Source: Moniliella sp. 'wahieum' | Taxonomy: Eukaryota | Direction of reading: 5' to 3' | DNA length: 64,000 nt | Assembly: GCA_003971905.1 (NCBI GenBank) | Contig: RSEE01000155.1 | Span: 1 to 64,000 of the forward strand | Part shown: positions 11,052-52,920 of the stretch, piece after piece | Layout: every line of letters starts with the position of its first letter | Numbering within the stretch: the stretch's first letter is position 1 | The notes under the pieces: model-generated | What the model was told of the DNA's origin: nothing | The model's database searches: none | Seen by the model: only the letters and a program-made list of their open reading frames with translations | Translations under genes and position numbers: made by a program

Positions 11052-12075
11052 ATGCCGTTCCAGGTCGGCAACTACACCGGCCTGTGCGAGGAGGTGGCCC
11101 TCCTGCCCTGCCCGCTTTCAACAGCGAGACAGGGATTGTGCCCACATGCTATGCACGTAGCGTGCAGCTCGGCAGCACCCTCGTCTTCCAGTGTGGTACG
11201 TCCCTGTTTGCTTTCTGGATGCGCCGGCGGCCCGAGGTTGACGCGATGTGCGTTCTGGGACAGCTACCTGTGTGATGCACATCTTTGCTGTCTTTATGGT
11301 GCTCATCATGCTCTACCACATTCGCTCCAAGTACACGGCCGTTGGCCGGCGCGAGATTAGCCTCTTCTTCTACCTCTACATCATTGAGGAAATCCTCGGC
11401 GTCTTCCTCGACTCGGCTGCGATTCCCACCTACTCGGGTGCGTACCGTGGATTGTATCCGTCCACGTCGGTCTCGTCCTTGCCCTGAGCTGGTGTCTTAT
11501 GGCCAATGGCTTGTCGGTTTCAGTTCTGGGAGGATGGTACACGGCAATCCCTTCTTTCTATGTACGGCTCACGCTCGTTCTTTGGGTCGTCGGTTTTGTC
11601 GTCGCCGCGGCCACTTTTAAGGATGGGGAAACAGTCTTAACCCGCAACATCATGTTGGGCTCTATGTGGTCCATATGATCATTCCACTGATCTTCATCCT
11701 CATCTGGCTCACCACCCAGGTATGGATCGTGTTCGTACCCTCGACACTCTCTGGCCCATTGGCGACCTTTTATTTGCCACCATCTTTTACGTCGCGGGGC
11801 TGGTGCTGATGATGGGGGTGTCGACCGACGTGTGCACCGGGACAAAACATTATGTCGATGGCCTCTTCTTTGGCACGCTCGCCATCCTTTTGCCATCATG
11901 ATGGTGTACAAGTTCTGGGATGATATCACAAAGGAGGACCTTGAGTTCAGTGTGGGCTCCAAGGCCGCTGCTTGGGAAGTTACAGACCCCTACTGGGGAT
12001 CGGAGACGGACTCGTTCACATCTAAGCCTTTTGGTGGACATGCACGAGTGACCAAGACGGGATATCAGGCGTTAG
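11052..12075 (+). CDS. CHS7: Chitin synthase export chaperone Chs7, copy A (1 intron ~11196-11262; frameshifted)
   Basis: [75 protein letters not shown], all characteristic of the Chs7 family. Confidence 0.92.
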
Positions 12076-12838
12076 CCTTTGCCCGCCCTGCATCCCACTC
12101 CTGTCTCGACTGTCTATCATGTCCCGCAGAGACCTCGTGCAGTCGAGCAAACATGTCATCATCACACCTAGAACATGGATGGGGAGGGGTGGGGGACAAG
12201 GTCACCTACAATCTCGGCTCCTTTTTTTCCTTATTCGCCCTGCCTCGACTCTTTTTCTCCCCACCCCCCATATTGCGTCCTCGCCGCTTGTTATCAAAAG
12301 TGATCGTCTGTGTTTCGGGGTATTTATTCGGTCTCCTCGTCTTCTATGTGGAGGTTAGCCCTGCTAGCTTTTTCTGTAACCTCTCCACCTTGCTCTTGCC
12401 ACACGATGGAGGAACCAGCCGTGTCCTTCTCCATCTTTTCTATGAGCCTCATCGTCGGATCATCACCACATTTCATCTTCACCTATAGGACCATCTCCTC
12501 GCCTCTGTCAGGCCTATGTACAGAAGGAAACTATTAAGTCCGTTTGTATACCCTGACCAGTGACTCAGTGGGACGTTTTAGTTACCTGCAATCGTCCTGA
12601 AGCTCCTCATGTCGGAAAGAGGATGCGTTATAATCTTCCAAGTCGCAGGACCGCAAAGAACAGTCAAGCTTCAAGCTACTAGTCGGCATAAATGTGGTGT
12701 GACCGGTGACCGGTGACCAAAAGACTTCACTCCCTCATGAAACATTTCAAAGACAATGGTGTATTTTTATTTTTTTCCTTGTTTCACAATTACGCCGCCG
12801 CGTTCAAATTTTTCTTGCTCTTCACCATCACTAGCACC

Positions 12839-14558
12839 ATGGGCGAGGAGAGCAAGAAAGCGCTCAAGCAGCCAAGAAGGAGGGCAAGACGGACAAGCCC
12901 CACAAGGACAAGAAGGAGAAGAAAGACAAGAAGGACAAGAAGCGCAAGGCCGAGCCGCCACCGATATTCCAAGAGCGAGAAAGAGAAAAGTGTCAAGAAG
13001 GCCAAGAAGGACAAGAAGGAAAGAGGGCGCATCCTGCTTCGGCACCAGCCCCAACCCCAGCACCAGCAGCAAGCCCGCGTCTAGGAAAGGTGTACCTACC
13101 GCTCTTGACGTGGCTGCAGCTGCCGGGGATGCGAGTGGGTCCCAAGCGTTCCTCGAAAAGAACCACATCACAGTCGAGGACAGCGCGGTGGAAGACAGCA
13201 AGGCGGCGGACGCAGTTGCGTTTACCCGCTTTTCCGCATTGGACACCCTCGTCGACCCTCGCATCAGCAAGGTGCTTGCCGATCAGAACTTTCCTGCTCC
13301 AACACCCATTCAGGCCGCTTGCTGGCCCCTGCTCCTTCAGGGCAAGGACATGGTGGGTATTGCTGAGACTGGGTACGTCCTCCCCTCCGCCCCCCGCCCT
13401 CCCTCACTTGATGGCCAGCTGGGGTATGTGACTGACATGGATACAGGTCCGGAAAGACGTTTGCTTTGGTCTTCCGGCCGTGCAAGCTCTGCTCCGTGAG
13501 GGGGCAGTAAATACGAAGGCGGGCCCACTGGTGCTTGTTGTGGCGCCGACGCGCGAGCTGGCGCAACAGACGGCCGAGCAGCTGGAAAAGCTCGGACGCG
13601 GGACTGGATTGGGTGTGCTGTGTCTGTATGGCGGTGTGGGGAAAGAGGAGCAGACGCGCGCTCTGCAGGGCAGGAAGGGGCCTGCGCCAGCGATTGTGGT
13701 GGGGTACGCCCGGGCGCTTGTTGGACTTGGCCCGCGACGGCTCGCTTGTCTTGGGCAACGTCAAGGTGGCCGTGCTGGATGAGGCGGATCGGAGCTGGAT
13801 AAGGGCTTCGAACCTGACATTCGCGCCATCTTGGGTATGACCCCTTCGGCACAACGGCAGACGGCCATGTTTAGTGCGACTTGGCCGCCAGCGGTCCGCA
13901 TGCTTGCCGACACTTTCCTTCGTGACCCGATGCGCGTCACGGTTGCTGGCCCGAGCTCGGCGCCAACAGGAGGATTACAGACCGTTCACGTTCTGGAAGG
14001 CGGCTGGGCGGTCAAGACCGTAAGTTGGACGATGTGTTGCGCCAGTATTATGCCGGCAAGGGCCACAAAAAGACAGATCGCATCCTGGTGTTTGCTCTGT
14101 ACAAAAAGGAGGCTGCCCGGGTCGAGCAGAGCCTTGCCCGCAACGGACACAAGGTCCGGGCATCCATGGCGATCTGGGGCAGCGCGACCGGATGGCGAAC
14201 CTTGCTGCGTTCAAGGATGGTTCGGCGCCCATCCTCGTTGCCACTGATGTTGCGGCCCGTGGTCTCGACATTCCGATGTGGAACTTGTCGTCAATTACAC
14301 CTTCCCGCTTACGGCCGAAGACTATGTGCACCGCATTGGACGGACAGGACGCGGTGGCCGAGATGGCGCCGCGATCACCTTTACGAGGATAAGGCGCATG
14401 CGGGCGAATTGGTCCGGATCCTTAAAGATGCGAATCAGGCCGTTCCGGACGACCTGATGAAATTCCCTACCACCATCAAGAAGAAGACCCATGCTGCCTA
14501 TGGCGACCATTTCAAGGAGTTCGTGCCGGGCAAGGCCAAGAAGATCACTTTTGACTAG
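12839..14558 (+). CDS. DBP3: DEAD-box RNA helicase Dbp3 (intron ~13373-13447; frameshifted)
   Basis: Lys-rich N-terminus; [20 protein letters not shown] across the intron; [32 protein letters not shown]; Dbp3-type C-terminus [21 protein letters not shown]. Confidence 0.92.
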
Positions 14559-14682
14559 GCCTGCAGCAGATGGACTGATACTGAGGTGGCATCATGTCAT
14601 TGGCTGTGTAGGAAATTGAATGATTGTCAAGGGAAATGTTATAGGGGTATGCAGCGAGGGGCGGGCGGCGTCATGCCATGCA

Positions 14683-51500: not shown

Positions 51501-51560
51501 CGTGCTGAATTGGCCCGGGTGGTGGAACGTGTGGTGACAGCGGAGCACCCAAGTCGCTGA
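48548..51560 (+). CDS. GRAM + VASt sterol transfer protein (Lam/Ysp2 family), copy B (introns ~49541-49684, 49885-50009, 50831-50920)
   Basis: ITGFAVASSKRNAEFHAIF; QGRLYVSENHLCFNSNIFGWVT; YIKPLNASIGPKQAKC; TRTPDVPSGGSFSVKTRTC; C-terminal hydrophobic segment and coiled coil. Confidence 0.93.
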
Positions 51561-51836
51561 ATGGTTCCGCCTCTGTCTCTCGCCTCGGTCGACCGCCCTA
51601 CTTGCCCCCAGGAACGCGCTTGCTGCAACCTAGCTCTCTGCATGCCCTTAATTACATGGTGAAATGGATGCTGTACAAAGAACGGGATCAAGGGCAAGGG
51701 TACAAGGATGATGCTAGAGACATGCCCCAACAACGGGGGGGAGGGGATGAGGGGGGTACAGGGTCATACGCAGGGAGGAGGAGGTAGAGGTAGAGGTAGA
51801 GGTAGCGGGGGAGGGGGGGGGGGGAGCAAGAGAGAA

Positions 51837-52920
51837 CTAAAATGCTTGGTAGCCCGCCTTGTTGGTTTTCGCTGGGGGTGGGGAAGCAGGTTAGGCTTGG
51901 AGGCGAACGAGTCGGCTTCAGAGCCGTAATAAATGGGTTCCTTGACTTGCCACGCGGCCACCTTGGTGCCGACGGAGAACTCGAGGTCTTCCCGGGTAAT
52001 GTCGTCCCAGAATTGTACACCATCATGATGGCAAAGAGGATGGCCAGCGTGCCAAAAATAGGCCGTCGACGTAATGTTTTGTGCCGGAGCACACGTCGGT
52101 CGAGACGCCCATCATCAGTACCAAGCCTCCGACGAAGAAGATGGTGGCACAAGCCAAGTCGCCCAGCGGCCACAATGTATCGAGTGTGCGCAACACAATC
52201 CAGACCTGGGTAACCAGCCAAATCGCAATAAAGATGAGGGCACAATGAGATGGACGACATAGAGCCCCACATGGTGCTGAGGGTTGAGACTGCCCCCCCA
52301 CCCTTTAAACGTAGCGGCGGCGACGACAAAGCCAACGACCCAAAGCACCAGCGTGGTGCCATACATGGACAAGAGTGACTGTCGCGTCCCGTCTTCCCAG
52401 AACTGAAAACCCGACAAAGCCATTGACCATCAGACACCACGACAGGGCCAAGACCAGGCCGACATGGACGGATACGATCCATATGTATCCGCCCGAGTAC
52501 GTGGGGATGACGGCCGAGTCGAGAAAGATGCCGAGGATCTCCTCGATGAGGTAGAGGTAAAAGAACAGGCTGATCTCACGCCGTCCCACCGCGGTGTACT
52601 TGGAGCGAATGTGGTAGAGCATGATGGCCACCATGAAGAAGGCAAAGATATGGATGACACAGGTGGCTGTCGGCGCAGGCAGGGCAGGTGGGCAGGTGGG
52701 AAGCCGGGGTCAGCGTTCCGCCACGTTCCTTCCTTGCCCATGGGAGGGGGTTAGGGGGGGGGGGAAGCAACGCACCGCATTGGAAGACGAGGGTGCTGCC
52801 GAGCTGGACGGTGCGGGCATAGCATGTCGGCACAATGCCCGCGTCCGAGTTGAGCAGCGGACAGGGCAGCAACGCCACCTCCTGGCACAGGCCCGTGTAG
52901 TTTCCCACCTGGAACGGCAT
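51837..52920 (-). CDS. CHS7: Chs7 chitin synthase export chaperone, copy B (1 intron, same position as in copy A)
   Basis: [53 protein letters not shown]; ends KAGYQAF*. Confidence 0.92.

Follow-up and report, generated by a model that had tools for sequence, protein, structure and literature searches.

Why would a yeast-like fungus carry, 31 kb apart on one chromosome and in mirror orientation, two copies of a gene for a chitin synthase export chaperone, each accompanied by a gene of a sterol-transfer type? The question is raised by a 64,000-nucleotide stretch of Moniliella sp. 'wahieum' (contig RSEE01000155.1, positions 1 to 64,000, of assembly GCA_003971905.1; 69.5 Mb in 223 contigs), analysed whole and called the window below, in which a CHS7 gene and a gene with GRAM and VASt domains both occur twice. 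Moniliella is an erythritol-producing group. The three transaldolase loci of the assembly share 87% identity with the enzyme of Moniliella megachiliensis, compared with 70-74% for two other species of Ustilaginomycotina, which marks a Moniliella-like yeast. The reading we prefer, to which we give a probability of roughly 0.55, is that a local mirror duplication produced the two pairs, that CHS7 was kept for balance with its clients, and that the GRAM gene was a passenger. In what follows, A is the left copy and B the right, C155 is the contig of the window, C43 its haplotype twin and C73 its homeologue.

The mirrored pair

11052-12075, + strand: CHS7 copy A (Chs7, PF12271); one phase-1 intron, 11196-11263; 7 one- or two-base deletions in the assembly
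12839-14558, + strand: DEAD-box RNA helicase (Pfam DEAD), between CHS7 and GRAM, left copy only
14683-17580, - strand: GRAM, VASt and one C-terminal hydrophobic helix, copy A (Ysp2/Lam4 type); introns 16425-16371, about 16173-16101, and 15328-15274
17581-48547, no strand: interior between the mirror copies, 31 kb, without self-paralogy
48548-51560, + strand: GRAM, VASt and one C-terminal hydrophobic helix, copy B; introns 49541-49684, 49885-50009 and 50831-50920
51837-52920, - strand: CHS7 copy B; one phase-1 intron, 52775-52667; 5 small indels in the assembly

Self-BLASTN and tBLASTx recover the inverted pair described in the first-pass annotation, CHS7(+)...GRAM(-) mirrored by GRAM(+)-CHS7(-). 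For CHS7, 11049-12029 matches 52923-51893 at 78.5-83% nucleotide identity; for GRAM/VASt, 15151-17606 matches 51044-48521 piecewise, at 68-85%. The gene pair and orientation given for the left copy hold, while the helicase lying between its two genes had been left unnamed; we take it to be DBP3-like (Pfam gives DEAD only), and the right copy has no counterpart of it. A giant palindrome is ruled out, mirror paralogues being absent from the interior and from 140 kb of C73.

Pfam Chs7 scores above its cut-off on both window copies and on all 8 CHS7 loci of the assembly. On C73, CHS7-B has an unbroken frame of 326 amino acids, with 7 hydropathy peaks and a mass below 45 kDa, to which the window copies align over 310 and 318 codons; a structure search gave no match to a solved structure for Chs7. 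Both partner genes carry Pfam GRAM, followed in both copies by VASt, which is above the cut-off on the B piece (30.6 bits) and below it on the short A piece (22.1), copy A passing in a separate search. Each copy has a single hydropathy peak for the C-terminal helix (1.97 and 1.70). The closest solved structures are Lam4 and Ysp2 (PDB 5yqj, 5yqi, 6cay; E 5e-22 to 1e-18) and the closest named database matches are 'related to YSP2'. Ysp2 and Lam4 transfer sterols at contacts between the endoplasmic reticulum (ER) and the plasma membrane.

The copies have the same intron positions, as had been noticed at first: one CHS7 intron and three GRAM/VASt introns agree in codon and phase. GRAM-A has an extra candidate GT-AG intron (16892-16798) without equivalent in GRAM-B. 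The first 60 nucleotides of the CHS7 copies differ, exactly as counted before, at 8 sites, 7 of them synonymous, with 19 of 20 amino acids identical. The accompanying statement that introns and untranslated regions do not align stands for the CHS7 introns (P 0.58) and the 5' 300 nucleotides (P 0.20), which score like shuffles, and has to be softened for the 3' 300 nucleotides, where a faint score remains (P 0.017).

All four reading frames (CHS7-A/B and GRAM-A/B) are broken in the window by small indels in the assembly. Deletions, mostly of one base, make up 39 of 46 CHS7 indels; the 7 in A and 5 in B make no in-frame stop within the aligned codons, and few are common to both haplotypes (1 of 7+13 in A, 0 of 5+3 in B). 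Control genes are equally indel-rich: the helicase has 9 in 362 and 18 in 351 codons, and SNF2 has 13 in 363. These observations leave a pseudogene reading unsupported, and the frameshifts look like assembly errors in genes that would be intact.

Selection on the two pairs was measured with codons adjoining indels masked. CHS7-A and -B differ by a synonymous divergence (dS) of 1.21 (0.89-1.64) and a nonsynonymous divergence (dN) of 0.092, with dN/dS about 0.08 (253 codons). The GRAM/VASt copies give a dS of 1.51 (1.07-2.56), a dN of 0.152 and a dN/dS of about 0.10 over 253 compared codons, from alignable blocks chosen out of the reference (349 of 806 codons), a choice that biases dN downward. 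Purifying selection on both pairs, as originally proposed, is borne out by these ratios. The two synonymous divergences are not very different, and four-fold degenerate sites differ at 60/115 in CHS7 and 58/100 in GRAM (P 0.41), in agreement with one event for both genes; independent duplications are unsupported.

Age, homeologues and a third pair

Three contigs (C155, C43 and C73) repeat the mirror layout for the two CHS7 copies, and two (C155 and C43) for the two GRAM copies; 140 kb of C73 gave no GRAM/VASt match. C43 matches the window in long collinear blocks at 88-95% nucleotide identity (C73, 71-85%) and is a haplotype twin of the entire window (dS 0.01-0.10). A and B have diverged about 20 times as far as the haplotypes have, and the CHS7-A and -B proteins are 83-87% identical, with 10 fixed amino-acid differences.

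Among 44 informative CHS7 sites, 33 pair A155 with A73 and B155 with B73, 6 group by contig and 5 crosswise. The DNA tree gives ((A155,A43),A73) with support of 100, ((B155,B43),B73) with 78, and A+B with 100, so that A and B form separate clades, each with its C73 copy. Together, the sites and the tree show, as far as sequence comparison goes, that the mirror duplication is older than the homeologue doubling (C155/C43 vs C73), predating the C155/C73 split by a short interval. Gene conversion between the arms was not seen: the 6 sites by contig and 5 crosswise are unclustered and the introns unalignable, and whereas known gene-converting palindrome arms have homogenised tracts, the window arms do not. 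In protein trees (20 of the CHS7 matches, 11 of the VASt matches), database proteins P0122 and P0123 join CHS7-A (0.89), P0121 joins B (0.86), P0001 and P0002 group with A or B without a clear preference, and P0131 joins GRAM-B (0.90).

The window is collinear with its homeologue at C73:185-255 kb, with dS about 0.7-1.1 and genes lost reciprocally; the same holds for C39:480-532 kb and C34:534-608 kb, and for C31:528-550 kb and C12:266-278 kb. Uncollapsed haplotypes (dS about 0.05) overlie the homeologous blocks. Four control genes on homeologues have a dS of 0.71-1.17, with differences at 336/699 four-fold sites. The named genes of the interior, and a relic to the left of CHS7-A, are:

9552-9686, + strand: relic of an LRR gene, presumably SDS22-like, intact on C73 beside CHS7-A
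22.4-23.8 kb: ornithine carbamoyltransferase (OTC), interior
24.6-27.3 kb: Suf/RNA14-type gene, interior
28207-28309, - strand: U6 small nuclear RNA gene, interior, 98% identical on C73
38.1-40.6 kb: RasGAP, interior
43.9-45.6 kb: kinase, interior
46.5-47.4 kb: ubiquitin-like and CAP-Gly, interior

The interior also holds genes given no name. Between the SDS22-like gene and SNF2, a hand count of 25 genes, which omits those missed by the coding filter, found 8 that both homeologues keep, 8 confined to C155/C43 and 9 confined to C73. In genome-wide searches, which give lower bounds, C73 alone yielded intact copies of the SDS22-like gene and canonical ZPR1, and C155/C43 alone the RNA14-type gene; all three are essential genes. 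The collinearity, similar dS and reciprocal loss of C155 and C73, as of the other two block pairs, form the pattern that an old genome doubling would leave, and three regions only show it. Our literature search, which covered few subscription journals, found no report of genome doubling in Moniliella; one may be in print. According to the accessible part of a survey (PMC7539958), few fungi are ancient polyploids. Those named there (Saccharomycetaceae, Mucorales/Rhizopus, Hortaea) share with C155/C73, C39/C34 and C31/C12 the collinearity, similar dS and reciprocal loss; unlike them, the present case lies in Ustilaginomycotina, a group for which that part of the survey lists no such event, and comprises three regions only.

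A third CHS7+GRAM pair, C, is found on C39 and C34, where GRAM, a small FtsH_ext gene and CHS7 lie head to tail. It is the outgroup to A+B (dN 0.19-0.26 for CHS7, 0.32-0.36 for GRAM); CHS7-C differs from A/B at about 30% of residues, and the GRAM intron at codon 618 is present in A and B and not in C. This position shows an older duplication, which split A/B from the C pair before the mirror event. Comparison of the A/B regions with the C regions (77-140 kb vs 90 kb) found no further common gene at 45 bits besides generic family matches. The FtsH_ext gene (C39:522.5-523.4 kb and C34:563.3-564.1 kb) has two loci in the genome. Database proteins P0003, P0004, P0005 and P0007 join CHS7-C, and two C-type database proteins, one CHS7 and one VASt, are encoded on contigs of equal length (14,737), so the linkage probably exists in a relative. 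It is not ancient, because CHS7 and GRAM/VASt proteins are on different contigs in 4 of the 5 named smut-related fungi found in both searches, and we reject an ancestral linkage in that group.

The assembly holds 8 CHS7 loci in 6 lineages, the window containing 2 of the 8. They are 55-60% identical to single-copy orthologues of smut-related fungi, and all six lineages arose inside a genus-level Moniliella clade (0.98 support). The premise that CHS7 is usually single copy is right for yeasts and Ustilago maydis and too narrow elsewhere: the accessible text of PMC11803449 gives two copies in filamentous ascomycetes and up to 9 in other fungi, and there are the 8 loci here.

How the pair arose and why it was kept

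The mechanism that we propose begins with a block containing at least CHS7 and the Ysp2/Lam4-type GRAM-VASt gene, which was duplicated once, in mirror orientation and 31 kb apart, in an ancestor of the present Moniliella-like yeast, before the region doubled into C155/C43 and C73. The mirror copies would be by-products at the ends of an inversion made by staggered breaks, and the event was probably a local, inversion-associated duplication. Inverted duplications accompany 17 of 29 Drosophila inversions in the accessible part of the study that set out this model (PMC1885836). As in the model, unique gene-bearing DNA is mirrored here at both ends of an unduplicated interior; unlike the Drosophila cases, which average about 88% nucleotide identity, dS is above 1, whole genes are kept, and the inversion is inferred.

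Two further features bear on the size of the block:

7127-8406, - strand: diverged ZPR1 paralogue, 39-46% amino-acid identity to canonical ZPR1 on C73
56665-57460, no strand: counterpart of the place that holds canonical ZPR1 on C73; in the window ZPR1 is absent, leaving a 174-nucleotide match to a C73 neighbour (weak Rpb4 match) and a repeat fragment, then a thymidylate kinase gene

Canonical ZPR1 of C73, on the + strand and to the right of CHS7-B, mirrors the position of the diverged ZPR1 to the left of CHS7-A. ZPR1 may thus have been the third member of a duplicated block of about 10-13 kb, with later reciprocal loss. The diverged gene is kept between haplotypes (dN 0-0.007, dS 0.05-0.11, four pieces), differs from the C73 copy at 56/80 four-fold sites, more than homeologues do (P 0.0002), and possibly has a new function. 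It lies about 10 kb from the telomere.

Chs7 would act as an ER chaperone limiting the export of class IV chitin synthases, extra CHS7 copies being kept in balance with synthases that have multiplied as well. Chs7 limits Chs3 export in S. cerevisiae, where balanced expression of both is needed according to the accessible part of PMC2133151. We found 17 strong Chitin_synth_2 loci in four families (C34, C20, C31, C119, C12, C69, C13, C37, C99, C212, C41, C42, C112, C102, C2, C8 and C23). Two families have myosin and DEK domains, and two have neither in the 7 pieces tested; the latter are read as class IV-type from their domain content. With haplotypes merged, these myosin/DEK-free families comprise 4 and 3 lineages and the myosin/DEK families 2 and 2. 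U. maydis has two class IV chitin synthases. The synthases of C31 and C119 are identical over 428 codons, and the families show nested age levels. Old synthase copies look like gene-scale duplications, because they have 0-1 common flanking gene in 30-40 kb.

CHS7 is doubly kept on homeologues at A, B and C, compared with 8 of 25 neighbours (chance about 0.03, post hoc). From this analysis, dosage balance is a plausible reading, and the best one, for CHS7 alone. It fits CHS7 and not the pair, because C73 is without both GRAM copies. The first-pass annotation had proposed dosage or subfunctionalisation of chitin synthase export and of sterol transfer together; dosage of export remains plausible and the joint dosage story is weakened, since C73 keeps both CHS7 copies with no GRAM/VASt in 140 kb. 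The GRAM-VASt gene would have ridden along by linkage, its extra copies being dispensable; it is under purifying selection where present, yet looks like a passenger.

Several points weigh against this account. The retention argument is post hoc and comes from one region, and the myosin-bearing synthases also have old extra copies, so that expansion is not confined to Chs7 clients. At four-fold sites A and B are almost saturated with changes, and their divergence does not significantly exceed that of the homeologue controls (P 0.42 and 0.07), so that the order of ages rests on the tree and the shared states. The 10 fixed A/B differences are few and mostly conservative, which is neutral for dosage and weak for new function. 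Two indels, at codon 207 of CHS7-A and at codon 630 of GRAM-A, occur in both haplotypes, and the intact frames and their expression are presumed. ZPR1 copies differ more than A and B do and may have a separate history. The breakpoints of the proposed inversion are eroded.

Alternatives and meaning

The most serious alternative, still a tentative one, is subfunctionalisation: each of CHS7-A, -B and -C might have its own chitin synthase to serve, or its own growth stage (yeast, hypha or arthroconidium), a division known from CSE-7 and CSE-8 of Neurospora. The persistence of three CHS7 lineages in relatives, A and B promoters that do not align, and the distance of C from A/B would all fit, and in N. 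crassa CSE-7 serves CHS-4 and CSE-8 serves CHS-3, as stated in the accessible text of PMC11803449. Against this, CSE-7 and CSE-8 are only 31% identical, far from the closeness of A and B and their handful of fixed differences. Slightly more doubtful is a larger version, in which an undescribed ancient doubling in Moniliella, perhaps two, was followed by strong reciprocal loss, and Chs7, normally single in yeasts, split into lasting A, B and C forms, each paired with its own class IV synthase. If true, a chaperone-client system would have been multiplied and specialised inside one yeast genus.

We find it unlikely that A and B (or A/B and C) are what remains of another, older genome doubling whose products were later joined on a single chromosome and lost to fractionation almost completely. 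The nesting of ages at three levels, seen in CHS7, in GRAM and in one family of chitin synthases, the reciprocal pattern of ZPR1/SDS22-like/helicase on the left and S28 peptidase/ZPR1 on the right, and one extra common match flanking the C34 and C20 synthases would suit such an event, and heavy fractionation could leave two common genes in about 40. The mirror placement 31 kb apart, however, marks a local event; OTC, the helicase, the RNA14-type, SDS22-like and FtsH_ext genes are without an older paralogue; and the A/B and C regions have only CHS7 and GRAM in common. The older doubling is further weakened by the flanks of the old synthase pairs, with almost nothing in common where young homeologues share several genes.

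Production of the mirror copy by a DNA transposon (alternative transposition or capture) instead of staggered breaks, with retention as in the dosage account, seems to us improbable. One repeat fragment does lie immediately on the inner side of A and another on the outer side of B (21219-21363 vs 56837-56982, inverted, 73%), but these are not the limits of the duplicated block, further copies are present elsewhere, on C73, and neither termini nor target duplications survive. The family of 21219-21363 is also present on C73 near 172, 214.4-214.9 and 244.1 kb, adjoining a reverse-transcriptase frame at about 212-214 kb. Another dispersed pair is direct (8623-8883 vs 31481-31731, 77%), and short repeats with a 7-base period occur at 4079-4125, at 49574-49660 and in other non-coding places, including GRAM-B intron 1.

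An assembly artefact, whether a chimeric join of haplotypes or species or a mixed sample, is the least credible reading and a chimeric join is very unlikely: the assembly is indel-rich, large and holds several versions of each region, but the layout recurs on three separate contigs, A and B stand far above haplotype divergence, database proteins fall within both clades, and the complementary losses of SDS22-like, ZPR1 and RNA14-type genes fit one nucleus. The earlier view of a real paralogy and not an assembly echo is thereby upheld.

Some features of the left end stand apart. C43 ends in TTAGGG repeats 3.4 kb past the left end of the window, preceded at C43:546825-547292 by subtelomeric tandem units of about 140 bp, so this end is subtelomeric on its own chromosome and internal on C73. 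Upstream of CHS7-A, a 350-bp tandem duplication (98.9%; 9902-10598), single on C43, is either a recent event or an assembly echo. Against C43, haplotype dS reaches about 0.05-0.06 in CHS7-A and in both B genes and falls to about 0.01 in the helicase and GRAM-A (13.4-16.4 kb), where a tract may have lost heterozygosity.

Compared with known systems, the Moniliella proteins resemble Chs7/CSE-7 chaperones (S. cerevisiae Chs7, PMC2133151; N. crassa CSE-7 and CSE-8, PMC11803449) in their full-length Pfam Chs7 domain, seven hydrophobic helices and 326 amino acids; ER location and chitin synthase export are known for Chs7 of other species from the accessible parts of the same two papers. They differ in having six lineages in a yeast-like fungus, where U. 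maydis has one copy (PMC11803449, accessible text), and in having arisen within a genus-level clade, unlike the ancient CSE-7/CSE-8 split. The partner genes would belong with the Lam/Ltc sterol-transfer proteins of Ysp2/Lam4 type, judging by their GRAM, VASt and single C-terminal helix; they differ in that one VASt was found, in their three lineages (A, B and C, with A and B absent from C73), and in a tight CHS7 linkage, of which 4 of the 5 named smut-related fungi gave no sign.

Inverted duplication of segments has precedents, as do Chs7 in several copies and paleopolyploidy in fungi. What is new is this instance, the number of Chs7 lineages, six, in a yeast-like basidiomycete, and evidence, local in extent, for a genome doubling in Moniliella, an old event to which the flanks point. 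Six Chs7 and seven class IV-type synthase lineages offer a natural test of whether a dedicated chaperone of ER export stays in dosage balance with what it exports or divides its work by client, a question tested so far only for Chs7-Chs3 and the ancient CSE-7/CSE-8 pair.

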